Of a stretch of DNA of 60,947 bases, positions 2,176-24,550 are shown in pieces. A program made the position numbers and the translations under genes. The DNA comes from a virus (Duplodnaviria; Caudoviricetes), in IMG/VR virus record IMGVR_UViG_3300028908_000010, positions 1 through 60,947 of that record. One strand, 5' to 3'. The notes under the pieces are model-generated. The model worked only from the letters and a program-made list of their open reading frames with translations, was not told the DNA's origin and made no database searches. How positions within the stretch are numbered: the first letter of the stretch is position 1; every line of letters begins with the position of its first letter.

Positions 2176-2832
2176 ATGAAAATAACATTTATAGAAGCAA
2201 GAGACCTGCCTGATTCATGGTTTCAATGTCTTGGCAAAGTAATAAATGAAGGTCGGGAATATACTATCCAGAAAGGAAGTTATGAAGGACAAAAAAGAAA
2301 AGAACTCGACTTTGTAGTTATTAATATAAAATACCCTGGCACAAGACCTTTACTCCCAGAGATACCCCCAACTCTCGGTATTCCACAACCAGTAACTGAA
2401 GAGTATTTAAATAATTATCTTCCTTATTTGTTTGAAGACACAAAATCAGAATTTGAAGAATATACTTATGGAACATTTTTGAAGCCTCAAATTCAAGAAG
2501 TAATAAAAATGTATAAAAATGCCAAAGAGACCAATCAAGCATACATGACAGTCGGGAATCCAGAGACCATATATATGGAAGACCCTCCATGTTTAAGAGG
2601 AATAGATACCAGAATAAGATATGGAAAACTACACTTTTTTGTCTATTTTAGGTCATGGGACTTATGGAATGGCTATCCAGCCAATCTGGGTGCTCTTCAG
2701 ATTCTAAAAGAATACATGGCAAGTGAAATAGGTGTAGAAGATGGAGAGATGGTTTCTATGAGCAAGGGTCTCCATCTATACGATTATACTTGGAATCTTG
2801 CAAAGAGGAGGTTGGGTAAAGGTTATGCGTAA
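2176..2832 (+). CDS. thyA: Thymidylate synthase-like protein (short ThyA type)
   Basis: YTYG, DPPCL, FRSWD, PAN, HLY motifs; AGGAGG SD before ATG 2176. Confidence 0.85.
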   Translation: MKITFIEARDLPDSWFQCLGKVINEGREYTIQKGSYEGQKRKELDFVVINIKYPGTRPLLPEIPPTLGIPQPVTEEYLNNYLPYLFEDTKSEFEEYTYGTFLKPQIQEVIKMYKNAKETNQAYMTVGNPETIYMEDPPCLRGIDTRIRYGKLHFFVYFRSWDLWNGYPANLGALQILKEYMASEIGVEDGEMVSMSKGLHLYDYTWNLAKRRLGKGYA

Positions 2833-3013
2833 TTATCTAAATCTTTTTCAAGGGTATGGTCTTTTTAGTCCTTATGGATATGTTATAAGAGAACAGGCAG
2901 AGATTAAAGAATCAGTTTTCAATGAAGTTCTGGAACGATTATATAATAAAATGGAAGAGTCTCTAAAGGAGGAAGAGAAAGTAAAAACTATGAGGAGAAA
3001 AGTATGGTGGTGA
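2825..3013 (+). CDS. Hypothetical protein ending RRKVWW
   Basis: Overlaps the thyA stop and the methylase start. Confidence 0.6.
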   Translation: MRNYLNLFQGYGLFSPYGYVIREQAEIKESVFNEVLERLYNKMEESLKEEEKVKTMRRKVWW

Positions 3014-3903
3014 AAAGGAATAAGAAAAGAGATATAATAGATAGTTATAGCTGGAAAGATATATTTCCAAAAGAAAATAGGTATTTTGAGACTAATAATG
3101 GAATTCTATATTGTGGAGATTGTTTAGAAGTAATGAAAGAATTTCCAAAAGAAATCATAGATATGATAGTTACATCACCTCCTTATGATAATCTTAGGTT
3201 TTATGGGCATAAAAACATTAAGCAATTTAAATGTGTTTGGAATATGGAAAAGTTTAAGTTGGTTGCCAAAGAACTTCGCAGAATAACCAAAGTAGGTGGT
3301 GTTATTGTTTGGGTTGTAGGCAATGCTACTATAAATGGAAGTGAAACAGGAAATTCTTTTAGGCAAGCATTATATTTTAAAGATGAATGTTCATTTAATT
3401 TACATGATACTATGATTTATGAAAAAACAGGTTTTAATTTTCCTTCTATAAACAGGTATCATCAAGTTTTTGATTATATGTTTGTTTTTTCCAAAGGAAA
3501 ACCAAAAACTTTTAACCCTATAAAAGATAGAAAAAACAAATGGACTGGAGGTTCATGGGGTAACACCACAACAAGAAGAAAAGATGGTAGTCTGCAAAAT
3601 AGAGGTAAGACTATTGTTAAGGAATATGGTATGCGTTTTAACGTTTGGAAAATAAAAAATGGAAAGGGTTTTGCACACTCAGACAATTTTGCATATGAGC
3701 ACCCAGCAACTTTTCCTGAACAATTAGCCCATGATCATATAATAAGTTGGTCAAATGTAGGAGATATTGTTTTAGACCCTCTTTGTGGCAGTGGAACTAC
3801 TTTGAAGATGGCAGATAAATTAAACAGAAAATGGATTGGAATAGAAATAAACGAAAAATATTGTGAAATATCTAAACAAAGGTTAGGGGAAAATGGGAGG
3901 TAA
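3004..3903 (+). CDS. Site-specific N4/N6 DNA methyltransferase (beta class)
   Basis: GDCLE, VTSPPY, HPATFP, VLDPLCGSGTT, IGIEI motifs. Confidence 0.92.
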   Translation: MVVKRNKKRDIIDSYSWKDIFPKENRYFETNNGILYCGDCLEVMKEFPKEIIDMIVTSPPYDNLRFYGHKNIKQFKCVWNMEKFKLVAKELRRITKVGGVIVWVVGNATINGSETGNSFRQALYFKDECSFNLHDTMIYEKTGFNFPSINRYHQVFDYMFVFSKGKPKTFNPIKDRKNKWTGGSWGNTTTRRKDGSLQNRGKTIVKEYGMRFNVWKIKNGKGFAHSDNFAYEHPATFPEQLAHDHIISWSNVGDIVLDPLCGSGTTLKMADKLNRKWIGIEINEKYCEISKQRLGENGR

Positions 3904-4085
3904 TTATGGAAAATACAAAGACAAATGAAGGTAAGCAAAAAGAGAACTCTGATTATGATAAAAAAAGTTATGATGATTTAATAAAAGAAGCTCTTTCGCT
4001 TATACGAGTATTATTTTATTTGGATTGAAATGGACATAGACATACTCAGGCAAGAAGTAAAAAAATAAAACATGGAGGGAGGAGT

Positions 4086-4439
4086 ATGATACTAAATCTC
4101 AATACTCTTGATTCACTAAAGATTGCTGGGTTCAGATATAAGGTTATCATTCCTTATAAATTTAAAGAAGTAGACCATCTGATGGGACAGTCGGTCATTA
4201 CCAATTCCGAAATAAGAGTTGCAGACACTGTTGATGGCGATCCAATAAGCCCTGAAAATATGCTCGAAAGTTTAATCCACGAAATTCTACACTGCATAGG
4301 AAAGGCATACAGCATTCGACCAATATTTGAAAAAGTTGATGATTCAGATACAAGGGCGGTTGTGGTTCTTGCTCGTGCTTTGGCATCCTTCTTACTGGAA
4401 AACAATTTAATAGAGGTAAAATATGTAAGAAGGAGATAA
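4086..4439 (+). CDS. Small zincin-like metallopeptidase
   Basis: SLIHEILH (HEXXH); strong SD. Confidence 0.7.
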   Translation: MILNLNTLDSLKIAGFRYKVIIPYKFKEVDHLMGQSVITNSEIRVADTVDGDPISPENMLESLIHEILHCIGKAYSIRPIFEKVDDSDTRAVVVLARALASFLLENNLIEVKYVRRR

Positions 4440-4441
4440 CA

Positions 4442-4777
4442 ATGGACAAGAGAAAAATTGGCAAAATCTATCTTAGTAGAGAGTTAATTAACTGGAAGAA
4501 GGATTGGAAAGAAGCACAAAAAATTCTGAGTTTAATAGGATTCTTCCCAGTCAGAGTTGAATATCTTGCATGGAACGACACTCTGGAAATGATAGGATAT
4601 AGCGATAAATTTGATGAAGTTGAACCAGGATATCAACCACCGACCTATGTTTTAACAGTTATCAGGGTAGGCAAGGATATAAAAACTGTCAAAGTATTAA
4701 GACTCAATAAATCTTTGGAGGGGAATTATGTTGAAAGGGTATGCGATGTGTGTGGTGGTAACAAAAAGACTACATAG
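4442..4777 (+). CDS. Hypothetical phage protein
   Basis: SD, tightly packed. Confidence 0.7.
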   Translation: MDKRKIGKIYLSRELINWKKDWKEAQKILSLIGFFPVRVEYLAWNDTLEMIGYSDKFDEVEPGYQPPTYVLTVIRVGKDIKTVKVLRLNKSLEGNYVERVCDVCGGNKKTT

Positions 4778-4789
4778 GGAGTTCTTATT

Positions 4790-5260
4790 GTGGATCTGGA
4801 AAGACTGAGAAAAGAAGTAAGAAAAAGACTTGATGCTAAAAAGAAGGAGCAGGAAAGGCTTATAGAGCCAGACCCACTGCCACTTTATGACGAAGTATTC
4901 TGGAAAGGGTTACACGAAATAGATAATGACTTTGATGACTTGAACTTATATAGAATGCCATTTGTAAAATATATATGGAGGGAAAAAGTGATGGATAATA
5001 AATTTAAAAAATACAGAAAGAAGCCAGTTATTATTGAGGCAATACAGTGGGACGGTGAAAAAGAAACTTTTAAGATTATTCAGGATACTATTCCCAGACA
5101 AGTTAAGATGGACAAAGACGGCAATTTAATTATTTCAACTTTGGAAGGAGATCATAAAGCCCTACCTAGAGACTATATAATTATTGGGGTAAAAGGAGAG
5201 GCTTACCCTTGTAAACCCGATATATTTAGAGAAACATATGAAGAAGTTGAAGGGTTATAA
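4790..5260 (+). CDS. PGDYG-like phage protein (conserved part likely starts at 4991)
   Basis: RKKPVIIEAIQW...STLEGD...DYIIIGVKGEAYPCKPDIFRETYE; internal GGAGG SD before 4991. Confidence 0.75.
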   Translation: MDLERLRKEVRKRLDAKKKEQERLIEPDPLPLYDEVFWKGLHEIDNDFDDLNLYRMPFVKYIWREKVMDNKFKKYRKKPVIIEAIQWDGEKETFKIIQDTIPRQVKMDKDGNLIISTLEGDHKALPRDYIIIGVKGEAYPCKPDIFRETYEEVEGL

Positions 5261-5381
5261 AGTGTTGATTTTATACTTATATTAAGTGAGTTAAATCCTT
5301 ACTGGGAGTAATAGGTATTATGAAACGTCTTATAACATGGCTCAGGTTGCTTATATGTAAGTTGTTAGGGGTGAATAGCTT

Positions 5382-5633
5382 ATGATAGTGGCTAAAAAAT
5401 TTCTCGGATTTGCAACATGCTGGACAAGGCCCTGGTGGAAAATATGGATAAGAATTTATGCTATTTACATGGAGAAAGAAGATGGACGCAGGGATATGTG
5501 GGACGTTTGCGACGACTGCAAATGTCATTGTGATAACTATAAAATCTGGTTCGATTGGGAAGCAATAAGAAGATTTTTTGGTAAACCACTACCAACTTAC
5601 AAAGAATGGATACATCATGAAAAGGAGGTGTAA
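5382..5633 (+). CDS. Hypothetical Cys/Trp-rich protein
   Basis: ORF in operon, CDDCKCHC. Confidence 0.6.
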   Translation: MIVAKKFLGFATCWTRPWWKIWIRIYAIYMEKEDGRRDMWDVCDDCKCHCDNYKIWFDWEAIRRFFGKPLPTYKEWIHHEKEV

Positions 5634-5635
5634 AA

Positions 5636-6028
5636 ATGATAAAAGAATATGGAAAGATAATATGCCCTGTATGTTATACTCATATTGATATAACTGTTAC
5701 CGTTGAGAAAAAAGAAGATGAAGTAGATCATAAACTTATGAGAGCATGGAATAAATACTTAGTCTGGATGCTTTGTGGTAACCCAAAATATAGAGACAAA
5801 CAATACTGGTATGATGACTACCATGAATTTGTTATGTTTAAACCAGGGAAATACCCTGGTCATGGCATTGTTTATTTTGCTATTCAAGTTCATGATTCTC
5901 CAGAGGGAGACACATGGCTTCATGCTAAAGTTCCTCTTGAAGGTGGCTCTTTAATACTCGCTAAAAAAGTAATAAAATACAGAGATACATGGCACATAAA
6001 TTGGGGGTCTGGTCATGATAGGTCCTAG
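5636..6028 (+). CDS. Hypothetical protein with N-terminal CPVC
   Basis: AGGAGGT SD. Confidence 0.7.
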   Translation: MIKEYGKIICPVCYTHIDITVTVEKKEDEVDHKLMRAWNKYLVWMLCGNPKYRDKQYWYDDYHEFVMFKPGKYPGHGIVYFAIQVHDSPEGDTWLHAKVPLEGGSLILAKKVIKYRDTWHINWGSGHDRS

Positions 6029-6254
6029 ACTCTACATAGCTGATAAAATAGCCAAAAAGTGGGTGAAAATAGTATACCCTTGGTGGCAACCAAATGATAT
6101 TTTCTTGCCTAAGCTTGACAAGACAGCACGTAAGACAAGAGTATTTTGCTCTAACCCAATATGTTGTGGCAATCCAAGACGGTATGGCAAGCTTACAAGG
6201 CAAGAAATAAAGGCTAATTTACTATTTAAAGAAGGACTTAATGAAATAGAGTGA
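6015..6254 (+). CDS. Conserved-type small phage protein (CS..CCGNPRR..G.LT.QE)
   Basis: Motif typical of small phage ORFs of unknown function. Confidence 0.6.
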   Translation: MIGPRLYIADKIAKKWVKIVYPWWQPNDIFLPKLDKTARKTRVFCSNPICCGNPRRYGKLTRQEIKANLLFKEGLNEIE

Positions 6255-6261
6255 AATAAAT

Positions 6262-6531
6262 ATGAAATGGACAAAGAACGATAAAGCAGTTGTATTGTTT
6301 GGAATTAAAAGATGGCTATCTATGTGTAAAAATGATCAGAAGAGACGTTGCCCTTTCTTTAGTAAAGAAGATTGCAAATTAATATGTTTTCATTTATTTC
6401 CCAAAATACGCAACAGTAAAAAATTATTTTGTCATTGCCCATGTGAAATATATGGTGTAGACAAAGTAAAACTAAGGTCTGAAAGAATAAGAAACTCATT
6501 AGAAAATCAGCTCAATGGAGTGATGGTATAA
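6262..6531 (+). CDS. Hypothetical Cys-rich protein
   Basis: Last ORF of the rightward block. Confidence 0.55.
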   Translation: MKWTKNDKAVVLFGIKRWLSMCKNDQKRRCPFFSKEDCKLICFHLFPKIRNSKKLFCHCPCEIYGVDKVKLRSERIRNSLENQLNGVMV

Positions 6532-6651
6532 GAAAAGTATATGTCAAAAATGGGGTTAGGATGTTCTCAGAAATACCCCACTTTTTCTTTGGAACAATGT
6601 TTCAGCATTCAATTTGGAAAAACACGATGTTTTATATCCGTTTCAAATAAA

Positions 6652-6671
6652 AAGTGAAAACGTTTTCACTT
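6652..6671. promoter_or_regulatory. Dispersed palindrome, 20-bp extended form
   Basis: AAGTGAAAACGTTTTCACTT in convergent intergenic region. Confidence 0.85.
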
Positions 6672-6984
6672 GTGTGTGGGCAAGTAAGTCGGGGGAAAAC
6701 TAACATAAAACCTATTTCTTATAAGAAGTTAAATCCAACATTTTTGTCATAAAATTTTTTGTAATTTCTCTAAGAGGTTTATATTTTTAGATGTTATTAA
6801 TGTCAAAAAATATTTCCTGATTTCTATTGTAGGTTTATAAAAAACACCCACCCCTTAAATATAACTTCCCCCTGTGTCCGATAGGGTAGGGTCTTAATAC
6901 TTAACTGGGATTTAAGAGAATTAAGGCGGGCGGGCAAGGATTGAACCTTGCCCAAGTGAGGAAGGAAAAATAGAAAGGATTAAA

Positions 6985-7251
6985 TTAAATAAGGGAAGGT
7001 TTGGAGGAAGCTTTCTTTTGCTTCCTCTTTGGAATAAAGACGTTAACCTGAACAACCATATCCTCAATCTCTAATCTCATGTAGCAAAGCTGGAAGCTCC
7101 TGTCTTTCTCTACTTTCTCAAGTTTTACTTTCCTGTTATTGAAAGTCAGCCCTTGCTTTGAAAAAATTAACTTCCCTTCCTTTAATTCAGATGACTTGTC
7201 AGATGACTTGATAAAACACTTGTTTACATCCTTAAATGTAAGCTCTAACAT
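6985..7251 (-). CDS. Early hypothetical protein
   Basis: AAGGAGG SD before ATG 7251. Confidence 0.7.
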   Translation of the reverse strand: MLELTFKDVNKCFIKSSDKSSELKEGKLIFSKQGLTFNNRKVKLEKVEKDRSFQLCYMRLEIEDMVVQVNVFIPKRKQKKASSKPSLI

Positions 7252-7276
7252 AACAAACCTCCTTGATTTTTTCTGC

Positions 7277-7305
7277 ATCATAACAAAAACAATTTGAAGA
7301 TGCAA
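7277..7305 (-). promoter_or_regulatory. Early promoter
   Basis: TTGCAT-17-TATGAT with extended TG. Confidence 0.7.
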
Positions 7306-7460
7306 ATCAGGTATTACCACCTTTTGCCCTATTCCCTTCCCTCTTATGTGTAGAGTAATAGGGCAAAAAAATAACCCCTACTCCGTCAAGTCTTGCCCTC
7401 CTGTGTGGGGGTCATCCCCACTGTAGGGGGTTTATGTGGAGCAGGGGTTAAAGATCAGGG

Positions 7461-7709
7461 CTAAAAGTTTATTTCCATCCAGCCCTGATCCTCATTTTTC
7501 TTTACAATGATATGCACTCCTCCCTCTTCTACAGAGGGGAAATGTGCACCAACAAATGTAAAACCAACCTCAAAAGGGAAAAATATTTGTCTTATGTGGG
7601 GACAGGGGTTTACCCCCACCTTAAAACAACCTGTAATAAAATCATCGATGTCTCGTTTTTTAATCCCTCTTTCGGCCATAATACGGCCAATAGCTTTCCT
7701 GTGATTCAT
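7461..7709 (-). CDS. Early hypothetical protein
   Basis: AAGGAGG SD before ATG 7709. Confidence 0.7.
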   Translation of the reverse strand: MNHRKAIGRIMAERGIKKRDIDDFITGCFKVGVNPCPHIRQIFFPFEVGFTFVGAHFPSVEEGGVHIIVKKNEDQGWMEINF

Positions 7710-7734
7710 AGTAGCCCTCCTTAATTTTTTTGCA

Positions 7735-7764
7735 ATCATAACAAACTTTGTTGCCTCAAATCAA
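7735..7764 (-). promoter_or_regulatory. Early promoter
   Basis: TTGATT-18-TATGAT with extended TG. Confidence 0.6.
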
Positions 7765-8081
7765 ATCCCCCAATAAGGAGTCCCATCGGCATAGTAGCCA
7801 ATGGGTTTCTGCCTTACACATTTGTGGAAAGCTCCCTTGTAGAGAGCCTTCCCACAATAACAGCACTGATAGAATTCATAGGTGCTATCCCAATCCCCTT
7901 CCCCGAAGTTATGGCTTTCGGGGATAATGACAATGGCTATATACTCCCTGCCATCGTCATCTTTTTTGACATCATCCCACTTTATGGAGTAGTGGGATGC
8001 ACAACCACCCATACTATTAATGGGTGGTTTAAAAGATCCCTCAAACTGAGGGATCTTGTCTTTAAGGTAGTAAATTTTCAT
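7761..8081 (-). CDS. Early hypothetical protein with CCYCG motif
   Basis: AGGAGG SD before ATG 8081. Confidence 0.7.
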   Translation of the reverse strand: MKIYYLKDKIPQFEGSFKPPINSMGGCASHYSIKWDDVKKDDDGREYIAIVIIPESHNFGEGDWDSTYEFYQCCYCGKALYKGAFHKCVRQKPIGYYADGTPYWGI

Positions 8082-8105
8082 AGCTCCCTCCTTTGTTTTT
8101 CTGCA

Positions 8106-8135
8106 ATCATAACAGAATTGAAAATCAAAAATCAA
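8106..8135 (-). promoter_or_regulatory. Early promoter
   Basis: TTGATT-18-TATGAT with extended TG. Confidence 0.6.
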
Positions 8136-8150
8136 ATTCGCTGTTACCAG

Positions 8151-8164
8151 TGAAAACGTTTTCA
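8151..8164. promoter_or_regulatory. Dispersed palindrome TGAAAACGTTTTCA
   Basis: Exact copy about 15 bp upstream of an early -35 box. Confidence 0.85.
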
Positions 8165-8194
8165 CATAAATGACAGTAATAGTTTACATGTGCC

Positions 8195-9046
8195 CTACCA
8201 TCTTTTAGGGAAAGGAAGGTAACTATCCTTACTAACCAGAATAAACCATTTATCCTTTAGAGACTGAGCAAGAATTACTTTCCTTATTCTTCCTCTCAGC
8301 TTTGTGTGGAAAAGCAGGTAGAGGTTTTTCTTATATTTTTTTGAGTTGAGGTAATCACCTGCCTCCCAACGCATTTCCTGTGTCCTTTTAACATGGTAGA
8401 AAGAACAGCCTATTTTGTGGACAGGCCATTCCTCCCATCCCCGAACACTTACTCCTACTATTTTGTTGTTTTCGTGGAATAATTTGCCCCACGAAAACAC
8501 GTCTTTCTTTATGACTCTTGCCTTTTCCTTCATCTCTGAAGGAAAATCTAAAGTTTTTAACATAGTTTCAACAAAATTGAGATCATCTGCAATGACCTTC
8601 AACTTTGTTGAAACTACCATGTTCTTTACATAAATGCACCATAGCCATTCTTCCTCCCATAAGAAATGAAAAGAGGATTCCAGTTCCCTCCATTGCTCCT
8701 CAGAGGGATACCTTACTGATCTTCCTAATACTTCCACTGGAAAGGTGCAAGTGGATGGGAAATCTAATGTCCATCCCTTGCCATAGTTATGCAAATCAGC
8801 ATGGAGCACACTGCTCCAAAATATGTGATCAATTGGGGATCTTAATCCAAATGTCCCCACTGAAGTGGTCTTAAATGTCTCCAGTCTAAAATAGGATGTA
8901 GCATTAACAGCTAACGGTAACTGTATTTTATTCTTGAAGTGTGTCCTAACAGACGCATAGATGTTTTTGTTTTCGTCATGTTTGAGAGTTATAACTCTCT
9001 CTAAACCTTCTATACTATATAAACTTCCATCTTTTTTTATAATCAT
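8195..9046 (-). CDS. Early hypothetical protein, 283 aa
   Basis: Long ORF with AAGGAGG SD. Confidence 0.8.
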   Translation of the reverse strand: MIIKKDGSLYSIEGLERVITLKHDENKNIYASVRTHFKNKIQLPLAVNATSYFRLETFKTTSVGTFGLRSPIDHIFWSSVLHADLHNYGKGWTLDFPSTCTFPVEVLGRSVRYPSEEQWRELESSFHFLWEEEWLWCIYVKNMVVSTKLKVIADDLNFVETMLKTLDFPSEMKEKARVIKKDVFSWGKLFHENNKIVGVSVRGWEEWPVHKIGCSFYHVKRTQEMRWEAGDYLNSKKYKKNLYLLFHTKLRGRIRKVILAQSLKDKWFILVSKDSYLPFPKRW

Positions 9047-9128
9047 AGCTCCCTCCTTAAAAATTTTTTTGAAAGTAATATATCAATTTTGCTGTATAGC
9101 CCCACCCCATAGGGCAGGGCTTATGTGC

Positions 9129-9512
9129 TTAGAGAATAACCATTACCTCTTCGTCTTTGGGTTTTTTTGCTATTGCCTCTTCATTTTTCTTCTTGACCTC
9201 CTTTAGCTTCTGGAATATCTCGTTTTCAAGTTCTATAACCTTAACTCTTAGGGCATCCCAGTCCTTAGACGATGCTACCGTCTCAGTTCTGAACCTCCAT
9301 TTTTTATTGTCATTTAAAAATCCCCAGTCCCAATTTAACCGCTCCCCCAACAATCTTGTATTAAAATCTTTAACTTCTGCTTTAAGTCCTTTTTCTTTTA
9401 CATTGTCTCTGTCCTCCGTCGGCAAGTAAACAGTAACTTTGCACCTGTAAGGTGCTACATGTTCATTGTTAAACACATATTCCCTCTTAATCTTAACTCT
9501 TAATCCTTCCAT
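9129..9512 (-). CDS. Early hypothetical protein
   Basis: AAGGAGG SD. Confidence 0.75.
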   Translation of the reverse strand: MEGLRVKIKREYVFNNEHVAPYRCKVTVYLPTEDRDNVKEKGLKAEVKDFNTRLLGERLNWDWGFLNDNKKWRFRTETVASSKDWDALRVKVIELENEIFQKLKEVKKKNEEAIAKKPKDEEVMVIL

Positions 9513-9538
9513 AACAAACCTCCTTAAAGTTTTTTTAA

Positions 9539-9568
9539 ATCATAAAATTTTCTGGAAATAAAAATCAA
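9539..9568 (-). promoter_or_regulatory. Early promoter
   Basis: TTGATT-18-TATGAT. Confidence 0.55.
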
Positions 9569-9600
9569 ATTGGCTGTTCAGGTGGTAGAGGGCATAAAAT

Positions 9601-9801
9601 CTATTTTTTATATGCTAATTCTTCGTCTGTTACTTCTTTTCCACATTTGGCACAAAAATATACGGTTTCCTCTTCGAGAAATTGGATAACATCGTCATAG
9701 GTATGATCTCCTGCGTCCCAAATGTGGAGCAGAGCCTCTGACCTCTCTTTTCTTATAAAAACGTCATGTCCACAAAAAGGGCAACATAGCTGTCTGTTCA
9801 T
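9601..9801 (-). CDS. Zn-ribbon protein
   Basis: CPFC...CAKC. Confidence 0.7.
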   Translation of the reverse strand: MNRQLCCPFCGHDVFIRKERSEALLHIWDAGDHTYDDVIQFLEEETVYFCAKCGKEVTDEELAYKK

Positions 9802-9995
9802 TTCTTTCCTCCTTTTTCCTCTGCCTTGTTAGAATAGGACAAAGCTGTCTCAAGATTATTTATGGTAATTTTGACCCACTCTGGAACAGAAGGTTTAAAG
9901 ACTTTCCAGAGGAGTCTTAAAGCCATATGATCACTCAAATATACGTAAGTTCCCTTGTGGTTATAGTAAATATGAAGTTTCACTATTTCTGCCAT
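9798..9995 (-). CDS. Early hypothetical protein
   Basis: AGGAGGTG SD before ATG 9995. Confidence 0.65.
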   Translation of the reverse strand: MAEIVKLHIYYNHKGTYVYLSDHMALRLLWKVFKPSVPEWVKITINNLETALSYSNKAEEKGGKK

Positions 9996-10052
9996 AATAC
10001 ACCTCCTTTTAATCATTTTTAACTGCCCCACCCGTATAGAGCAGGGCAAAAA

Positions 10053-10066
10053 TGAAAACGTTTTCA
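10053..10066. promoter_or_regulatory. Dispersed palindrome TGAAAACGTTTTCA
   Basis: Exact copy, intergenic, next to a GC hairpin. Confidence 0.85.
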
Positions 10067-10102
10067 GATATTTTACATAAATATCCTAATAATTCCAAAT
10101 AG

Positions 10103-11074
10103 TTAGTCCACCCTGTAATTACTTGTGGCACTAACTATTTCATTGTTTCTTACTGGAGTATAAATTCCTTCAAGTTTAACGGGAGTATGCTCCCGTGCTC
10201 CATGCCTTACAAGTCCCGTGCAGTAAATTTTTCCATCTTTAATAGCAATTCTGCACTTATGAGGATTTTGTCCTCTTAATCTTGGCAGAGACTTAACTCT
10301 AAAATCTTTATCTCTTAAACCGATTTCTTTTGGACTATCTGCTACCTTGATGAAAAACCATTCACCTTGTCTCAATACTTCTTTCCCTTCTGCCATAGCC
10401 TTAACTACAGTTTTTGGTTTGAGAACCTCGAATGCTTCCTCTACCGTGTTAGTAGGCTCGGGTAAGGCACAAGCGAAGTAACTCTGATCGTCGAACCCAG
10501 CCAGAATGTGGAGTCCATGATAAGATAACAAAACCGTCTCTGCTGTGTGGGCATATACTCGCTTATCCCCATTTTTAAATGTAAAGACTCGCACTTCACT
10601 GTATTTAGTTCTGAGATATCTAACGTATCGTTCAAACTCCTCTGTAGTAAACTCCTTTGGGTTGTCGGGGTCAATTGGGGGATATTCCTTATACTGTTCA
10701 CCTATAAGTCGGTATTCTTCTCCAAGCTCTTTGGCTTTTGTTTTATCGATAACTACAAGCTCTTTCAGTCTCGATTCCGTGCCAAGATAGTCGCCGAGAG
10801 CAAACATAGCTATAATGTTAAGAACTGCACTGTAAGAAACAGTCACTGCATTTACAGCCAATCTCTGCACTAAATACCTATGTCGATTAGACGTAGGGGA
10901 ATACTGATCCCCATTTATCAAAATTGTATCCTCAATCCTTATGGCAAGGATTTCGTTATAAGTCTTCAAAATATTGCCTATTGCATGAAGACTTCCTTGC
11001 CTATTTCTTGCTTGTTCATTACCCTCCAGCCAAGCTCTTATCACATCCTCATTTGTGTTAAATACTGTCCTCAT
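10103..11074 (-). CDS. Two-domain early phage protein (YSPTS.RH N-domain; RQGEWFF...H..EH C-domain)
   Basis: Motifs typical of phage early proteins; SD before ATG 11074. Confidence 0.8.
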   Translation of the reverse strand: MRTVFNTNEDVIRAWLEGNEQARNRQGSLHAIGNILKTYNEILAIRIEDTILINGDQYSPTSNRHRYLVQRLAVNAVTVSYSAVLNIIAMFALGDYLGTESRLKELVVIDKTKAKELGEEYRLIGEQYKEYPPIDPDNPKEFTTEEFERYVRYLRTKYSEVRVFTFKNGDKRVYAHTAETVLLSYHGLHILAGFDDQSYFACALPEPTNTVEEAFEVLKPKTVVKAMAEGKEVLRQGEWFFIKVADSPKEIGLRDKDFRVKSLPRLRGQNPHKCRIAIKDGKIYCTGLVRHGAREHTPVKLEGIYTPVRNNEIVSATSNYRVD

Positions 11075-11105
11075 ATCTAAATCCTCCTTTCTTGATTTTT
11101 TGACA

Positions 11106-11134
11106 ATTCTATCATGCAAAAATTTTATTTGCAA
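11106..11134 (-). promoter_or_regulatory. Early promoter
   Basis: TTGCAA-17-TAGAAT with extended TG. Confidence 0.7.
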
Positions 11135-11328
11135 ATCAGATCTTTAACACGTAACCCTTTGGCTACCTTCTTAAATCGCTTCCAGCCAGCCTCCGAGAAT
11201 GGGTATGACATATAGAGAGTTTGCCTATCTTCTAATTGTATGGAGAATAATTTTCTAATCTTTCCTCCCACTATCTTTTTCTCCATGTCCTCCTCATGGA
11301 GATTTAAGAAATCCTCCTTTCTTAACAT
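11125..11328 (-). CDS. Hypothetical protein
   Basis: GGAGGT SD. Confidence 0.65.
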   Translation of the reverse strand: MLRKEDFLNLHEEDMEKKIVGGKIRKLFSIQLEDRQTLYMSYPFSEAGWKRFKKVAKGLRVKDLICK

Positions 11329-11503
11329 GGTTTACCTCCTCTAATAGAAGAAGTTTAAATCCACACTTAACACAAGTGTGGTCTATCATTTGAGGATACC
11401 CACATATTGGACATCCTCCAATACTTTTGTAATTCCCACATTTGGGGCACAAATACCCCTCTTTCGTCCTAATCATAGATATATTACAATCAACACAAAT
11501 CAT
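11294..11503 (-). CDS. Double Zn-ribbon protein
   Basis: Four CxxC pairs. Confidence 0.7.
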   Translation of the reverse strand: MICVDCNISMIRTKEGYLCPKCGNYKSIGGCPICGYPQMIDHTCVKCGFKLLLLEEVNHVKKGGFLKSP

Positions 11504-11514
11504 ATTCCTCCCTC

Positions 11515-11874
11515 CTATGCTATTGTAAAAAATCTAAATTTTGCTTTCTTGACCTCTTCGTCTGTAAACTCCCTTGTCTCGTCTGGCCTAAATTGTGGAA
11601 TGATTGCAAATACCCAATCTCCGTCTCCCATTTCAATCTTAACCCTATTGAAAATGTTTTCAGGCATAGCCTTAGATATGAAATCTGGCATCCTTCGTCT
11701 AATAATATTAGCCGTATTCTTATGTCCGATGGCAGGGACAATCTCATTATTTGTAGTATTAACGTTGAACATCTCCGCCCAGAACACGGCCTCATCTACC
11801 TCCTGAACTACCACCACTGAGTCCCCTCTCATCATAGATGGGGAAAATGTTGTTGTGATAAAAATTTTGGCCAT
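11515..11874 (-). CDS. acrIII-1: AcrIII-1 / DUF1874 (STIV B116-like) cA4 ring nuclease, anti-type III CRISPR
   Basis: FSPSM, AIGHxxTA, NR, GD, R and EE motifs in family order; 119 aa. Confidence 0.8.
   Translation of the reverse strand: MAKIFITTTFSPSMMRGDSVVVVQEVDEAVFWAEMFNVNTTNNEIVPAIGHKNTANIIRRRMPDFISKAMPENIFNRVKIEMGDGDWVFAIIPQFRPDETREFTDEEVKKAKFRFFTIA
11649..11662. promoter_or_regulatory. Palindrome variant TGAAAATGTTTTCA
   Basis: One mismatch, inside the acrIII-1 gene. Confidence 0.6.
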
Positions 11875-11876
11875 AA

Positions 11877-12623
11877 TTACACCTCCTTTTTTGTTCTAAA
11901 GATTTTTATGCCATTTTCCAAGCAAATTATTAGATAGTCCACCAGTAAAAGGTCAAATCTAAAATAGTCCTTGAAATGAACAGTAAGATCTGTCCATTCA
12001 AGAGCTTTTTGACCTTTTACACAGAACCCATCTTTCCAAACTGTATAGCCAGACTTTGCACCATTTACAAGGTCGCTTAGGCATAAAATAGGTTTGCAAA
12101 TTCTAATTCCATTTACTACACACCCCCACCCAGCAGGACGAAATCTAATCGTCTGTTTTCCTACATGGGTTACATGAGGATCATAGTAAAGTCTGGCTTC
12201 ATAGGCAAAGTTAGGATGGAATTGTTCACGCAGAGCTTCGAGCTTGTCATATTTATCTCCCATTACAGCTCCATCAATAAAAGAACCTAACCTATCAAAT
12301 TCGGCAGGATTAGCAGGATTACCTTTTTCAGTGCATTTTATAATACCAATGGAGGGTAAAGAGTTTATTTTTCCATCTACATCAATAAAGTCAGGTTTTG
12401 GTCTATCTGGAGGCTCAATTTCGAGCTTAGATAATGCTATATCTGTAACAAGCCAATTAAGCCAATAGGATCTCTTCAAACTGGCACTACTTCTGCCATT
12501 TGGGGGTATAACACTGTATTTCGTAACTTTATACCCTAATGACTTAGCAAGTGAGGCAAATTTTTGTGGGTCTTTATAATTTTTGGTTATTTCTTGTAAA
12601 ATCTCTATTTCTTGCATGATCAC
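11877..12623 (-). CDS. Early hypothetical protein, 248 aa
   Basis: Coupled ORF with SD. Confidence 0.75.
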   Translation of the reverse strand: MIMQEIEILQEITKNYKDPQKFASLAKSLGYKVTKYSVIPPNGRSSASLKRSYWLNWLVTDIALSKLEIEPPDRPKPDFIDVDGKINSLPSIGIIKCTEKGNPANPAEFDRLGSFIDGAVMGDKYDKLEALREQFHPNFAYEARLYYDPHVTHVGKQTIRFRPAGWGCVVNGIRICKPILCLSDLVNGAKSGYTVWKDGFCVKGQKALEWTDLTVHFKDYFRFDLLLVDYLIICLENGIKIFRTKKEV

Positions 12624-12940
12624 ACCTCCTTTGAAGATTTTTTAGTGTAATACCTACATATAGCTTTTAAAGCACACACCAACCCAGCTTGGGAGAATTG
12701 ATCCCCCCTTTTTGTAAATATGCTGATAACATATTCCCTGTTATACCAGTAAACACTTACTGCCCACATATCCCAGAAGTATAGGGGGATAGTATTAAGA
12801 TGTTTATCCCCCTTTCGCAAAGCATTTCTCACTTTCTCAATTGTTTTCTCATCTGGCTTAATTCCTATTTCTTTGGCTATTTCCAAATAATACTCATCAT
12901 GGGATACTTCACCGTTTAAATACTGTTTCCTTGTAAACAT
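12620..12940 (-). CDS. Conserved-type phage protein (TRKQYL..HDEYY...HLNTIPL..WD)
   Basis: SD, motif. Confidence 0.75.
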   Translation of the reverse strand: MFTRKQYLNGEVSHDEYYLEIAKEIGIKPDEKTIEKVRNALRKGDKHLNTIPLYFWDMWAVSVYWYNREYVISIFTKRGDQFSQAGLVCALKAICRYYTKKSSKEV

Positions 12941-12942
12941 GA

Positions 12943-13293
12943 CTACACCTCCTTGTCTAAATCTAAAACAAACTTTACTTCTTCTTTGACGTGGCTAATA
13001 TGTATCCAGTCTTCCTGCCACCATGACTTACTGCCATGACTCCAATCCTTATTCCAGAACGAGTAGATGAACCCACATTCAATAACCGTTCCATTTTTCC
13101 CCTCCAAGTAAATTCTGTTATCCTTATGGGGACGTGGGATTTTTCCATACATCTCTTTGAGAAAATCTCTTACCTCATCCAGAGAATTAAATTCCTTTGC
13201 TGTTTGGTCAAACATATACTGTTTGTCAATATCCTGTGGACGAGGACGGGCACAATGGTGAATGTGTAGCTTATAATACTCCCTTGTAAGCAT
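12943..13293 (-). CDS. Early hypothetical protein
   Basis: AGAAAGGAGG SD. Confidence 0.75.
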   Translation of the reverse strand: MLTREYYKLHIHHCARPRPQDIDKQYMFDQTAKEFNSLDEVRDFLKEMYGKIPRPHKDNRIYLEGKNGTVIECGFIYSFWNKDWSHGSKSWWQEDWIHISHVKEEVKFVLDLDKEV

Positions 13294-13326
13294 AACTAAA
13301 TCCTCCTTTCTTTTGATTTTTGCTAA

Positions 13327-13355
13327 ATTTTATTGATCTTCAAAATTTGAGTCAA
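13327..13355 (-). promoter_or_regulatory. Promoter for the early operon, inside the terS 3' end
   Basis: TTGACT-17-TAAAAT. Confidence 0.7.
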
Positions 13356-13812
13356 ATTGGGAGTTAACAGGGTAGGGTTGGTTATCTTCTTGGTTGGATA
13401 AACCTAATACGTTAAAGATAAAAGTTTGAGGAGCAGATTGTTCGTGGAGAAATCCGCCCATCTTTGCCAAAGTATTTAATGCACTTACTTTTACATTATC
13501 ACTTGTATCTTTACTTTCTACAAGTGACTTTAGTTTTAAAACAATGTAGTTTCTGTCAATTTCACCAAGCTGGGCAATTCTCTTTTGCAAATATTCAATA
13601 TATCTTTTTACAATTGGATCTCTTAGAAGGGACATTGCTTTTTGCTGAGCATATTTTTTGGGATACCCAGCTTTTACAGCACTTCTGTAAGGTCTCCTTT
13701 CTTTGGCATAGTAGTGGCAGAATTTCCTTATTCTCGTGGAGAGTTGGTCGAAACCATCCAGCTCTTCATCAGTGAACTCCTTTGGTTCTGGCAAATAATA
13801 TTCGGAATCCAT
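13330..13812 (-). CDS. terS: Terminase small subunit (Terminase_2-like)
   Basis: FCHYY...SAVKAGY...A.SLLRDP.V..YI...KVSALNTLAK. Confidence 0.85.
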   Translation of the reverse strand: MDSEYYLPEPKEFTDEELDGFDQLSTRIRKFCHYYAKERRPYRSAVKAGYPKKYAQQKAMSLLRDPIVKRYIEYLQKRIAQLGEIDRNYIVLKLKSLVESKDTSDNVKVSALNTLAKMGGFLHEQSAPQTFIFNVLGLSNQEDNQPYPVNSQFDSNFEDQ

Positions 13813-13818
13813 GTTTTC

Positions 13819-13847
13819 AATTTAGCAAAAAATGAAAATATTTTCAA
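13819..13847 (-). promoter_or_regulatory. Leaderless promoter of terS overlapped by palindrome variant TGAAAATATTTTCA (13833-13846)
   Basis: TTGAAA-17-TAAATT with extended TG, 6 nt before ATG, no SD. Confidence 0.6.
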
Positions 13848-13904
13848 ATTAAAAACTTTTATTAAATGAAATCAATATTTTAGGCAATAAATGAAAATTT
13901 TTAC

Positions 13905-13933
13905 TTGACAAAAATAGCAATAAGAATTATCTT
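13905..13933 (+). promoter_or_regulatory. sigma70-type promoter
   Basis: TTGACA-17-TATCTT. Confidence 0.75.
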
Positions 13934-13961
13934 GAGAAAAAACGAAAGGAGGATCAGAAAA

Positions 13962-14279
13962 ATGAAAAAATTAATTGATCAATTTGGAGAGCTTGACGAA
14001 CAAATCAAGGAACTTACAAAAAAGAAGAATAAAATTAAGAAAAAACTTGAAAAACTTGACCCTGGCAAGCATTTAGGGGATAAGCATTATATTATCCTCT
14101 CTGAAGAAGAAAAAGTAGAATATGATGTTATAAAAGTAGCCCATGCTCTAAAGAAGGAAACTCTCAAAGTCGTTAAGGTGATTGGAACTGAACTCAAGAA
14201 GTATATTCCTAAAACAAAGCTGGGGCAATACATTAAAAGTAGGACTACTTATAAGAAGATAAGGGTGGGGAGGATATAA
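13962..14279 (+). CDS. Basic coiled-coil phage protein
   Basis: GAAAGGAGG SD before ATG 13962. Confidence 0.75.
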   Translation: MKKLIDQFGELDEQIKELTKKKNKIKKKLEKLDPGKHLGDKHYIILSEEEKVEYDVIKVAHALKKETLKVVKVIGTELKKYIPKTKLGQYIKSRTTYKKIRVGRI

Positions 14280-14281
14280 CC

Positions 14282-14434
14282 ATGAAGTTAAACAAAGCCA
14301 AATTCTGTTACAATTGTGATGAAATTTTTACGGAAGATACCTGTCCGTCGTGTGGTAGGGATGATAACTGGATATGGCTATCAAACTGGATAACTACTTT
14401 AACAACTAATTCATCAAAAGAAAAGGAGGTATAA
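14282..14434 (+). CDS. Small Zn-ribbon protein (not in ORF track)
   Basis: MKLNKAKFCYNCDEIFTEDTCPSCG...KEV, GGAGG SD. Confidence 0.7.
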   Translation: MKLNKAKFCYNCDEIFTEDTCPSCGRDDNWIWLSNWITTLTTNSSKEKEV

Positions 14435-14436
14435 TC

Positions 14437-15042
14437 GTGGCAAAGAAGAAAAAAATAGAAACAAAGAAAACAGTCAAAATCAATGTAAGGGAGGAAATAA
14501 AACGCCTTCTCTATGAGATAGACGAAAAGAGATATGATCTCTATCTCAAAATCCACGAGGTAAAAAGAGACCAAAAGTATATAGAATGGGGATTTGATAA
14601 TTTTAAGGAATGGATAGAAAAAGACCTTAATCTTGAGTATAGAATTGGTCTGTGGTATGCCCAAATGGGGGAAACCATAGACAAATTCAATATTCCCAAG
14701 AGTGTTGTATTATCTGTCTCTTGGACTAAGTTCAAGGAAATTGCACAATTGGACAATTGGGAGCAGATAGAGCCTCTCCTAAAGAAAGCCACTGGTATGA
14801 CTTTTAAAGAAATTCAGGCAGAAGTAAAACAAATAAAAAGAAACATTGCTTCCAAGGAAGCTACTCTTACAACTCTTACTCTCAAATTAAAGGAAGACCA
14901 ATATGATATAGTAATGCAAGCTATAGAAAGAGCAAAAGAAGAGACTGGAACAGAGAGCATTGGGTCTGCTATTGAGTATATATGCCAAGAATACCTCATA
15001 GGAGGAGCAGAAAGTGACATCTTCAACTTTGAAGAAGAATAA
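14437..15042 (+). CDS. Putative DNA-binding protein (PF49/DUF3102-like helical domain plus RHH-like C-terminus)
   Basis: KYIEWGFDNFKEWIEKDL...WY pattern; C-terminal strand-helix-helix TLTLKL...IVMQAIERAK...SAIEYICQEYL. Confidence 0.55.
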   Translation: MAKKKKIETKKTVKINVREEIKRLLYEIDEKRYDLYLKIHEVKRDQKYIEWGFDNFKEWIEKDLNLEYRIGLWYAQMGETIDKFNIPKSVVLSVSWTKFKEIAQLDNWEQIEPLLKKATGMTFKEIQAEVKQIKRNIASKEATLTTLTLKLKEDQYDIVMQAIERAKEETGTESIGSAIEYICQEYLIGGAESDIFNFEEE

Positions 15043-15499
15043 TGTAGTTGTTTGTGGGGGAATATATAGCATCAGTGAGCACGAAAGCATCAGGTGGAAT
15101 CTGGGGTATAGTTCCAGATCTCCACATAGGTTAATCGAAGAGTTAAAAAATAAAGTCCCCATCCATCAAGTAGCTATCTTTTATATGCCTAAAGAGTGGT
15201 TACAGCATATTTCCTCTTCAGAGAGACATCCTTATATCAAACTCTATCTATCAAGATTTGAAGTTCCTGAATATACAACCATGGTGGTTCGCATCCTGAG
15301 ACATAAGTTTGGGAAACCTGTAAGAGGAGGGGTAATAACTTTCCAGGCAAATAAGGAAGGAGAATATATAAAAATTAAACATAAAGTCGCAACTGAGTTT
15401 GAAGTGATAAGTAAGACCGTTGGACAGGTGTTAAAGGTAGGGAAAGAAACCAGAGATGTTGAGATAATGAGACAGAAAAGGAGGAAAATATGGTGGTAG
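15014..15499 (+). CDS. Hypothetical protein ending RRKIWW
   Basis: ORF in operon; start uncertain. Confidence 0.7.
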   Translation: MTSSTLKKNNVVVCGGIYSISEHESIRWNLGYSSRSPHRLIEELKNKVPIHQVAIFYMPKEWLQHISSSERHPYIKLYLSRFEVPEYTTMVVRILRHKFGKPVRGGVITFQANKEGEYIKIKHKVATEFEVISKTVGQVLKVGKETRDVEIMRQKRRKIWW

Positions 15500-15927
15500 A
15501 GGTATGGATAGGAGAATATAAGGAAAAGAATTTTCCTATGTATTACTCATGCCAGAATACTTTGTATGCAGGAGAGTCATTTCGAGGGGAAGAATTGATA
15601 TGGGATAAGTATAATTTTATAGAATTCAAATATCTTCCAGCAAAGAAAGTTGATAAGTTTTCCAATGAATACTATAATCTCGAAAAATATGAAGTAACTG
15701 TAAAAGAATACTCCTGTATTATGATAGAATTTACATGGTATTTCCATTGGAAACGCAGTAAGAAAGAGTGGAGCAAAGAACGCTGGGTATTTCATGTAGC
15801 AGAAGAATATGATAGAAAGGAAGTAAAACATAGACTCTTAAAATCTTTCAAGATAATTGGAAATCTTGGCACTATGCTGATGGATGGAGCAGGTAAGGAA
15901 ACATTGAGGGGAAGAGTATGGTGGTAA
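15490..15927 (+). CDS. Hypothetical protein ending RGRVWW
   Basis: Coupled ORF. Confidence 0.7.
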   Translation: MVVEVWIGEYKEKNFPMYYSCQNTLYAGESFRGEELIWDKYNFIEFKYLPAKKVDKFSNEYYNLEKYEVTVKEYSCIMIEFTWYFHWKRSKKEWSKERWVFHVAEEYDRKEVKHRLLKSFKIIGNLGTMLMDGAGKETLRGRVWW

Positions 15928-16433
15928 AATCCAAACTTATAACCTCAATGAATGACTATAGCATAATAAAAGGAAAACTGGAATATTATTTTGAGGAAGT
16001 TAAATCCCGTTTTCTGCGGATAGTAGCTTTAATTGATGATTATGAACTGCCAGAAATGTTAGAGTTACCCAATTCAGTAAATGTTCTTCCGAGAGGATAC
16101 TTCTTATATAAAGGGGAAAGTTTCGGAGGGTATACACATATAATGAAAGGGGGGTTTTGTGAAATACACTATACAAATTTTGAAATGAGGTATCTCCCTT
16201 ATAGGAATTTGACTTTATCTGTATACCAATACCGTAGCTCCAAGGGCAATGAGAGGTTGTTATTACACACTCCACAAATAAGAATAGGAATACGCACTAT
16301 TCCTTCAGCAAGGACTAAAATGAAGTTGAAATATAGTAGAAGTGAACTTCAGGGGGATTTTGCAGTAGTAGATTATATAGATAGCAAAGATTTTTGCTAT
16401 TACCCTTATACAACTAAAAAAATCTGGTGGTAG
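15918..16433 (+). CDS. Hypothetical protein ending TKKIWW
   Basis: Coupled ORF. Confidence 0.7.
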   Translation: MVVKSKLITSMNDYSIIKGKLEYYFEEVKSRFLRIVALIDDYELPEMLELPNSVNVLPRGYFLYKGESFGGYTHIMKGGFCEIHYTNFEMRYLPYRNLTLSVYQYRSSKGNERLLLHTPQIRIGIRTIPSARTKMKLKYSRSELQGDFAVVDYIDSKDFCYYPYTTKKIWW

Positions 16434-16443: not shown

Positions 16444-16704
16444 ATGAGTAGATACATTAGGTTAAAAATGCAGGTTAACAAAGAGAGGTTTTTAAATTGT
16501 GCCCAGAGATTGGGATATTCCACTATAGAAAATCGTGTGACTGGAAATGGGTTGTATAGACCTATTGAGGTGCATGATAATGGGTATTTATCTTATGATG
16601 ACATGAATGTAAAGCAGGTAGCAGAGATCATGGGAGAATACGTAGCTGACACCTATGGAGGGAGGGTAGAAAAGGTAAATGACGAAATATTTGTGTATGT
16701 ATAG
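16444..16704 (+). CDS. DUF1257 (Ycf35)-like protein
   Basis: MS.Y..L...V......C...LGY...YDD...EY...G pattern and context with DUF2997 and Ycf46. Confidence 0.6.
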   Translation: MSRYIRLKMQVNKERFLNCAQRLGYSTIENRVTGNGLYRPIEVHDNGYLSYDDMNVKQVAEIMGEYVADTYGGRVEKVNDEIFVYV

Positions 16705-16713: not shown

Positions 16714-17013
16714 ATGGAACAATTAAAATTATTTGAGGAGGTGTGGTATGCCAATAATAAAGATCAAAGTAAACAAAGACGGAACGATCGAGTTGAAGGG
16801 AGAAGGGTTTTATGGGAACGAGTGTCTTCAACCAATGGGAGATCTGGCAAAGGATCTGGGAGTGACATTGGAAGAGAAGCCTCTGGAAGGGGAGGAGATT
16901 GTCCATATATCATCATAAAAGTGGAAGGGGATATTCTCAGGGTAGTTCTTGAGGACTGTCCTGAATGCCCCTTTAAACAATGTAAAAATTGTGAAAAAGG
17001 ACATTGTGGTTAG
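16714..17013 (+). CDS. Possible overlapping ORF (N-terminal QLKLF, Cys-rich C-terminus)
   Basis: Own AGGAGG SD; spans DUF2997 in another frame. Confidence 0.35.
   Translation: MEQLKLFEEVWYANNKDQSKQRRNDRVEGRRVLWERVSSTNGRSGKGSGSDIGREASGRGGDCPYIIIKVEGDILRVVLEDCPECPFKQCKNCEKGHCG
16748..16918 (+). CDS. DUF2997-like protein
   Basis: IKIKVNKDGTIELKGEGFYGNEC...LAKDLG; GAGGAGG SD. Confidence 0.75.
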   Translation: MPIIKIKVNKDGTIELKGEGFYGNECLQPMGDLAKDLGVTLEEKPLEGEEIVHISS

Positions 17014-24327: not shown

Positions 24328-24550
24328 AGTTACTAATATTCCATCAAAAGTTCCAGCAGAGGAAGAGCCTGCATGGGTAACCTATGAACTCAAAAGAACA
24401 GTAAATATGGGAGATTATGAAAGTCTATCAGTCAAAATTGGAGTAACTGTCCCATGTAGAAGAAAGGAAATCTCAACAGTCTATAAACAAGCTGGGAAGT
24501 TTGTGGAAAAGAAAATGGATCAAAAACTTGCCAAGTGGGGGTTTAAATGA
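24269..24550 (+). CDS. Conserved-type phage protein (TVNMGDYES)
   Basis: Motif typical of phage replication modules; SD. Confidence 0.7.
   Translation: MSKKDTKNKTVQMTVVEDNEVTNIPSKVPAEEEPAWVTYELKRTVNMGDYESLSVKIGVTVPCRRKEISTVYKQAGKFVEKKMDQKLAKWGFK

Follow-up and report, generated by a model that had tools for sequence, protein, structure and literature searches.

Short C-terminal tags that are read by AAA+ unfoldases are established: as described in the parts of PMC5143411 and PMC8138137 drawn on here, ClpX recognises both the three terminal residues of the ssrA tag (...LAA) and RRKKAI on the transposase of phage Mu (MuA). Here we analyse a C-terminal Trp-Trp (WW) tail carried by four dissimilar proteins, referred to as S, A, B and C, of the phage record IMGVR_UViG_3300028908_000010. 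The window, i.e. the whole 60,947-base stretch that was analysed, is a single, complete-looking contig (CheckV completeness 100). On its + strand, the A, B and C genes follow one another in tandem and are followed by an 86-residue protein gene, a DUF2997 gene and an AAA+ ATPase gene.

The WW tail is comparable to the ssrA and MuA tags in the properties that these sources describe: it lies at the very end of the protein, is three to six residues long and is found on unrelated proteins, here next to an AAA+ gene. Its layout in RRKIWW and RRKVWW also resembles that of RRKKAI on a phage protein, namely a basic run followed by hydrophobic residues; such a pattern is present in S, A and B (RRK or RGR followed by [IV]WW) and weaker in C and in the relatives. 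Unlike the known tags, which end in Ala-Ile or Ala-Ala, the tail ends in Trp-Trp, and the tags listed in the same parts of PMC5143411 and PMC8138137 do not include WW. Full-text literature searches brought up no C-terminal Trp-Trp tag described for phages. A further difference is that the ATPase of the window is Cdc48-like, with no protease partner seen.

In the case of Cdc48/p97 and Vps4, the adaptor and cofactor motifs SHP, VIM and MIM dock on the N-terminal domain of the ATPase. The parallel would be that of a short linear motif borne by unrelated proteins and one ring of a classic-clade AAA+ ATPase, the phage interaction being putative: the nearest relatives of the phage ATPase are D2 rings, those of Cdc48, p97 and VAT, and it has an N-terminal region of its own. 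Unlike in these systems, that N-terminal region matched no family, and SHP, VIM and MIM show no sequence likeness to the WW tail. A shared docking tail is also found in the single-stranded DNA-binding protein (SSB), whose C-terminal tip is acidic (...DDDIPF). Both are conserved tips of a few residues at the end of a flexible (in the phage case, probably flexible) tail, with a hydrophobic or aromatic end; the SSB tip, however, is acidic and borne by one family, whereas the WW tail is basic and borne by four unrelated proteins. The window has an SSB-like acidic tip of its own, EEDDDVPF, at the C-terminus of the product of gene 22003-22737 (+), which has no Pfam match; its orthologues end in DDDDDEVPF in one related locus (L002) and in ELFS in three others (L003, L004 and L005). 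Finally, stop-start coupling overlaps of the ATGA type share with the present locus the presence of the downstream Shine-Dalgarno sequence (SD) and ATG within the last codons of the upstream gene. Here, unlike in the ATGA type, the sequence of the overlap (ATGGTGGTRA) is fixed by the upstream peptide end and forces Met-Val-Val (MVV) upon the downstream protein.

Four Trp-Trp ends and a conserved protein family

A crude gene call on the window yielded 79 genes, some of which are probably spurious; their Trp frequency is 0.0148. Four genes end in [IV]WW, against 0.017 WW ends expected among the 79 (naive Poisson P for at least four WW ends, 3.6e-9, on the assumption of independent events, which may fail if the tails share an origin). 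The background of WW ends was counted on six-frame open reading frames (ORFs) of at least 50 residues: it amounts to 4/210 in the window and to 1/179 and 1/224 in two whole relatives, G001 (60,000 of 60,244 bases scanned) and G004, respectively, while 30 more distant AAA+ loci (L038-L067) contain none (0/1700). The four WW ends are not explained by chance. The first-pass annotation of the window had reported four dissimilar proteins with basic-[IV]-W-W ends, three of them directly upstream of the AAA+ module, and the ends, coordinates and stops all proved correct (Table 1). Its wider idea of a tag that recruits proteins to the AAA+ machine was not supported: by the counts given above for G001, G004 and the distant loci, the tail is not a general companion of the AAA+ module. 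The use of another genetic code was rejected, as the stops of the four tailed genes differ and the long ORFs are intact under table 11.

Table 1. Coordinates of the tailed genes, their tail codons and the neighbouring genes in the window
Feature	Position	Strand	Description
S	2825-3013	+	62 residues; probable ATG at 2825, ORF open from TTG at 2798; ends RRKVWW, stop TGA; fills the interval from the thymidylate-synthase-like gene to the methyltransferase gene
S tail codons	2993-3013	+	AGG AGA AAA GTA TGG TGG TGA; also SD GAGGAG and start of gene 3004
N6/N4 DNA methyltransferase	3004-3903	+	PF01555, E 1.7e-41; phrog_67; MVV start inside the S tail
A	15014-15499	+	161 residues; ends RRKIWW, stop TAG; small conserved family, beta-rich domain
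A tail codons	15479-15499	+	AGG AGG AAA ATA TGG TGG TAG; also SD AAGGAGG and start of B
B	15490-15927	+	145 residues; MVV start inside the A tail; ends RGRVWW, stop TAA
B tail codons	15907-15927	+	AGG GGA AGA GTA TGG TGG TAA; also SD GAGGGG and start of C
C	15918-16433	+	171 residues; MVV start inside the B tail; ends TKKIWW, stop TAG
C tail codons	16413-16433	+	ACT AAA AAA ATC TGG TGG TAG; neither SD nor ATG
86-residue conserved protein	16444-16704	+	orthologues 31-37% identical; always after the A gene in relatives
DUF2997 protein	16733-16918	+	probable ATG at 16748; PF11211, 28.6 bits (gathering score, 24.1), E 1.3e-6
AAA+ ATPase, classic clade	17028-18548	+	PF00004, E 7e-23, 82 bits; AAA_lid_3, 28.9 bits; phrog_8638, E 6e-106

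Protein A belongs to a small family in which the tail is conserved. A profile search of 5.8 billion proteins returned six family A members, that of the window included (P0001-P0006; E-values from 3e-64 to 2e-33), and the six of them have an [IL]WW C-terminus. The other members are only 20-24% identical to A of the window, and W160 and W161 are among the 11 invariant columns of the family alignment.

Relatives of the window were found through the AAA+ protein, which is 61-70% identical to that of the window in four related loci (L002-L005). These four loci have a single gene of 147-151 codons between a phrog_17202-like gene and the 86-residue protein gene, at the place occupied by A, B and C in the window, and this gene directly precedes the 86-residue/DUF2997/AAA+ module. 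Its product matches A of the window, and not B or C, by blastp (1e-8 to 1e-11, about 21-23% identity), the proteins of L003 and L005 being identical. The proteins end in KKLWW (encoded by CTT TGG TGG TAA) or in QTIWW (ATA or ATT TGG TGG, then TAG or TAA). No gene starts inside these tails, the next ATG lying 9-18 nucleotides further on; the gene that follows in L002 is preceded by an AGGAGG of its own, 18 nucleotides beyond the A tail, and the latent ATG present in the A tail of L003 and L005 opens a frame of five codons only, as read from the sequence. (The contig of L002 was met again in a genome scan, binned there in a Cloacimonadota metagenome-assembled genome, which may be a binning accident.) An alignment search of metagenomes with the AAA+ protein found six further loci (L068-L073), none of which contains an A homologue.

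The first-pass annotation had proposed a peptide-level signal, to be abandoned if homologues lacked the tail or if the tail occurred only where a start codon overlaps it. Both turned out otherwise, the former for A alone, as B, C and S are without homologues: the six members of family A keep WW, and C as well as the A orthologues of L002-L005 are tailed without any overlapping start, with codons, stops and spacers that vary. Since C and these orthologues carry the tail independently of a gene start and the whole of family A is tailed, the tail behaves as a peptide-level feature, and the WW end, with the one to three basic residues that precede it, looks like a genuine short linear peptide motif.

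The attributes of such a motif, namely a disordered, accessible segment that is conserved while its flanks diverge, were looked for and found in A. Indeed, an AlphaFold2 model of A built from the six-sequence alignment (mean predicted local distance difference test score (pLDDT) 69.9, predicted template modelling score 0.67) shows a beta-rich core, and residues 144-161, at the end of which the tail stands, have a pLDDT below 50. The A tail thus probably sits on a flexible C-terminal extension in this model. A Foldseek search of the PDB with the model gave no match at E <= 0.001.

Outside the tail, B, C and S have little in common with family A: when compared with the A-family profile by hhalign, the tail alone or nothing was aligned (probabilities of 0.4, 2.6 and 11.9%), so that full-length homology to family A was not found for any of the three. 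B, C and S are also absent from G001 and G004. A word-index search with B and C returned only the query proteins themselves, a full HMMER search with C only itself among 1.84 billion representatives, and an IMG/VR scan with B nothing; an IMG/VR match for C (L001) was rejected as false, the shared word lying inside a structural-looking ORF of 598 residues. In the ESM Atlas, C had a model of its own with a pLDDT of 0.29, and its matches were unnamed or below the bar. S belongs to no Pfam or PHROG family, and tblastn against 50,697 phage records gave no match for A, B, C or S.

Tail DNA as the start region of the next gene

The last 10 bases of the S, A and B genes (ATGGTGGTRA) are at the same time the start of the next gene, at 3004, 15490 and 15918, respectively. 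Read two bases later, the tail DNA yields an SD, a spacer of 5-6 nucleotides and ATG GTG GT, and the three proteins whose genes start in tails (the methyltransferase, B and C) all have an MVV N-terminus. That three tails supply the next ATG GTG GT and the fourth, that of C, does not had been noted in the first-pass annotation and was verified on the sequence. The three sites fit the pattern of a translational-coupling overlap, in which an SD stands 5-7 nucleotides ahead of an ATG located within the last codons of the upstream gene; the coupling itself is putative. Starts of the form ATG GTG GT[AG] are exceptional in the window: three were observed against 0.023 expected, and there are no others. 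Likewise, the window has eight overlaps of 4 bases and exactly three of 10 bases. The C tail is followed by GAGG and then by the ATG of the 86-residue protein gene at 16444, which has its own AGGAGG; this junction is like the post-A junction of the relatives.

The basic residues of three of the tails, which had been taken as part of the peptide signal, did not stand up as such: RRK, RRK and RGR are the SD of the next gene translated in another frame. Each of the three overlapped tails contains two or more AGR Arg codons, which form the SD, whereas Arg is found in the last six residues of none of the five distinct non-overlapped tails (TKKIWW, NKKLWW, KQTIWW twice and KQTLWW), which contain Lys, some of them with fewer basic residues. 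Thus, the fact that the tail DNA doubles as the SD and start of the next gene explains the 10-base overlaps, the RRK and RGR forms of the tail and the MVV with which three proteins begin. MVV starts are always accompanied by a tail (as are the three of the window, G001 and G004 having none), whereas tails also exist where no MVV gene starts, as in C and the relatives. It follows that the peptide end is the primary feature and that the overlapping MVV starts, which are secondary, exploit it.

RNA folding singled out one junction. The B/C junction (80-nucleotide window 15878-15957) has a predicted folding energy of -18.3 kcal/mol (z -2.7; 1 of 200 shuffles as stable), and an RNA structure common to the four junctions was rejected, the B/C junction alone folding well. 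The hairpin at 15902-15950 (+) has an outer stem of 8 bp formed by CAUUGAGG paired with CCUCAAUG, and the SD of C lies in the pairing, which suggests that C is translated only once ribosomes finish B.

Several other accounts of the junctions were discarded. The junction pattern AGGRGRARARTATGGTGGTRR gave three matches in IMG/VR, none of them between long ORFs, and the overlap junction was consequently rejected as a widespread element. A frameshift fusion of A, B and C was rejected on sequence: the frame of B is -1 from that of A, and a Trp tRNA slipped back on G-TGG faces GTG. A recent duplication of the junctions was rejected as well, their flanks not being similar: 11 of the 12 comparisons of the DNA flanking the four junctions showed no similarity beyond the tail, the remaining one being an A-rich match whose offsets differ. 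Recent DNA copying therefore does not explain the common tail.

The RecA-like gene at 24547-25524 (+) has a WW of a different kind. Its product ends in ERWWNGKAL, the RWW being encoded by AGGTGGTGGA right before the ATG of the next gene (25508), i.e. an SD-like GGTGG stretch read as Trp-Trp.

The downstream module and other genes of the window

Among solved structures, the AAA+ ATPase comes nearest to three unfoldases, Cdc48, p97 and VAT, in their D2 rings (E 7e-49). Its N-terminal region of about 220 residues is specific to the family and matched no Pfam family. The first-pass annotation had described the module as a DUF1257-DUF2997-AAA trio: the DUF2997 and AAA assignments were borne out by Pfam, and that of DUF1257 (PF06868) was not, with no match for the 86-residue protein or two of its orthologues at E-values up to 10, nor in the six frames of the whole window. 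It had also likened the KRTIF end of the ATPase to the tails. This end is indeed present in the protein of the window; it is not conserved, as the orthologues end in LLN, VLT and LLT. In the literature searched, DUF1257 and DUF2997 appear only as gene-neighbourhood mentions, in cyanobacteria. Complex prediction between A and the AAA+, 86-residue and DUF2997 proteins, run with shallow alignments, scored 0.00 and gave no answer, hence no evidence either way.

A 99-residue ORF with a Cys-rich end (CPECPFKQCKNCEKGHCG) lies at 16714-17013 (+); it shares DNA with the DUF2997 ORF, in a different frame, and ends where the AAA+ gene starts. L002-L005 keep an overlapping ORF of 67-69 residues ending in CKNCKKGWCG or similar, and its counterpart in the L069 locus, whose AAA+ protein is 39% identical to that of the window, has 47 residues and ends in CENCEFLIPCG. 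The Cys-ended ORF could be either a gene in overlap or the product of a frameshift. In L069, a gene of 138 codons at 3492-3908 (+), located between an MSV... gene and a DUF2997-like ORF, ends in KRWWEIWKR, a Trp-rich basic end in which WW is not terminal.

The AAA+ gene is followed by a replication operon coding for a DnaB-like helicase, a Toprim primase, a ResIII helicase, a RecA-like protein, a PD-(D/E)XK nuclease and a family A polymerase. The polymerase (27770-30142, +) has an N-terminal domain of the uracil-DNA-glycosylase superfamily (PF03167, E 1e-19) ahead of its 3'-5' exonuclease domain. On the other strand, at 30129-38972 (-), a single ORF encodes 2947 residues, of which only the C-terminal 1,750 or so are conserved in G001 and G004 (41-46% identity). 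At the other end of the window, the thymidylate-synthase-like gene (PF00303, E 5e-12), S and the methyltransferase gene constitute an accessory block (2176-3903, +), none of which is found in G001 or G004; it may be a DNA-modification cassette.

What the tail may do

The reading that we favour, to which we would give about even chances, is that the [I/L/V]WW end is a real peptide tag whose DNA was co-opted as a start signal. The motif would be ancestral to family A, whose gene always stands ahead of the 86-residue/DUF2997/Cdc48-like AAA+ module in this lineage; this ancestry is shown in part only. In the genome of the window, the motif is also found on the lineage-specific proteins B, C and S, and its multiplication is seen in this genome alone. 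As NTA TGG TGG TRA holds an ATG and the AGG or AGA Arg codons ahead of it make an SD, the tail DNA has been taken over as the start of downstream genes. The tail itself would be a recognition tag read by a partner protein. Indeed, a motif of three to six residues at a free and probably flexible C-terminus, found on unrelated proteins and conserved in a family whose place in the gene order links it to an AAA+ gene, has the signature of a recognition tag. The likeliest partner would be an AAA+ unfoldase, either the Cdc48-like ATPase of the phage itself or a Clp-type enzyme of the host, and the tag would mark early proteins for remodelling, recruitment or timed removal, as RRKKAI of MuA does for ClpX. 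The relationship of the neighbouring ATPase to Cdc48, p97 and VAT favours an unfoldase as the partner, which is nevertheless the least secure part of the proposal.

A number of observations weigh against this reading. No result of the analysis ties the tail to any partner, the AAA+ module included, and WW is unlike the known ClpX tags. Family A is tiny (six proteins from about five phage lineages), and the relatives carry one tailed protein each (G001 and G004, as well as G002 and G003 among ORFs of more than 53 residues; in the latter two, the single WW-ended ORF is the A orthologue). A phage whose AAA+ protein is 39% identical to that of the window has no A homologue, the gene at the corresponding position ending in NILY. 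As the alignment held only six sequences, the low pLDDT of the tail is weak evidence of disorder. Selection on the tails of B, C and S is not measurable, these proteins being without homologues in the searches made. Lastly, Trp has a single codon, so that TGGTGG allows no silent variation, and this sequence may also have a role as DNA or RNA.

This last point bears on the view that the tail has no function as a peptide, being simply a ribosome-binding site (RBS) and ATG GTG GT read in the upstream frame, or that TGGTGGT is an SD-like or Chi-like nucleic-acid signal. Three of the four tails of the window do coincide exactly with a start region, and GGTGG can resemble an SD, as in the AGGTGGTGGA of gene 24547-25524. 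We nonetheless regard this view as highly improbable: it is already contradicted by the tails of C and of the A proteins of L002-L005, inside which no gene starts, no other start of the window has GTGGT after its ATG, and the four junctions have no RNA structure in common. As for Chi, the octamer of E. coli begins with GC, which is missing at all seven sites, and a Chi-like site was rejected on this ground.

The four tails could also differ in status, the tail being functional in A only; in B, C and S it would be passively inherited and kept only for the start signal that it gives to the gene behind it. B and C would then be diverged tandem duplicates of A, or new genes spliced in at TATGGTGGTAR, the junction being copied each time. 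This explanation is the most serious competitor, although we consider it rather unlikely. In its favour, the relatives have a single gene in place of A, B and C, and B, C, S and the methyltransferase gene are missing from G001 and G004; A, B and C are of similar sizes; the C end followed by GAGG and ATGAG resembles the post-A junction of the relatives; and the tail DNA of S, A and B is required as a start signal whatever the peptide does. There is also weak similarity between A and B once MVV and the tails are removed (shuffle p of about 0.013; colinear, in the C-terminal third, with a shared GKET just before the tail) and between B and C (shuffle p of about 0.03, BLASTP E 0.012); these p values are uncorrected, and neither survives correction for six tests. 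On the other hand, the C tail is intact though it contains no start signal, a start signal needs an SD and an ATG, and not GTG GT plus an in-frame stop, and the DNA flanking the junctions is not similar. S, moreover, lies 12 kb away and is like A in its last 14 residues only. B and C may in fact have either of two histories, as old, fast-diverging tandem copies of A or as foreign or new genes joined at the tail. If they are old copies that have lost any other likeness (hhalign probability of at most 2.6%), then exactly the tail has survived, which argues for selection on it; if they were joined, the tails of S and B might be kept for nothing but their start signals, an explanation not open to that of C.

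A function as a peptide does not necessarily imply a protein partner. The tail could be a peripheral membrane anchor, with Lys and Arg on anionic lipid heads and Ile-Trp-Trp in the interface, that brings early proteins to the cell membrane. Its composition fits, as basic residues precede three strongly interface-seeking ones at a free and probably flexible end; the membrane interface is where Trp is preferentially found, and the membrane-targeting sequences of bacteria are located at the C-terminus. However, the amphipathic targeting helices that are known are longer than a stretch of three hydrophobic residues, the AlphaFold2 model shows no helix in the A tail, basic residues number only one or two in those tails of the family that are not overlapped, and nothing in the neighbourhood is related to membranes. 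We therefore hold such an anchor to be improbable. We are equally doubtful of a bolder form of the tag proposal, in which the WW tail would be a portable address tag for the Cdc48-like unfoldase of the phage. A would then be a conserved adaptor or substrate, and B, C and S fast-evolving, lineage-specific tagged proteins that carry different host targets to the same machine. The tag would moreover drive gene capture: the tail DNA being a ready RBS and ATG, a gene landing behind a tail would be expressed at once, and new genes would be captured in this way.

To return to the recognition tag that we favour, its reach is narrow, with six family members and a tail multiplied in the genome of the window only. 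If the tail is such a tag, phage early proteins would have a C-terminal signal that is both new and very short (three to six residues), and the tailed proteins would be the first candidate clients of the unstudied 86-residue/DUF2997/AAA+ module. With about 20 bases serving as peptide tag, SD and start codon, the locus would also be a clear case of overlapping constraints shaping the ends of phage genes.

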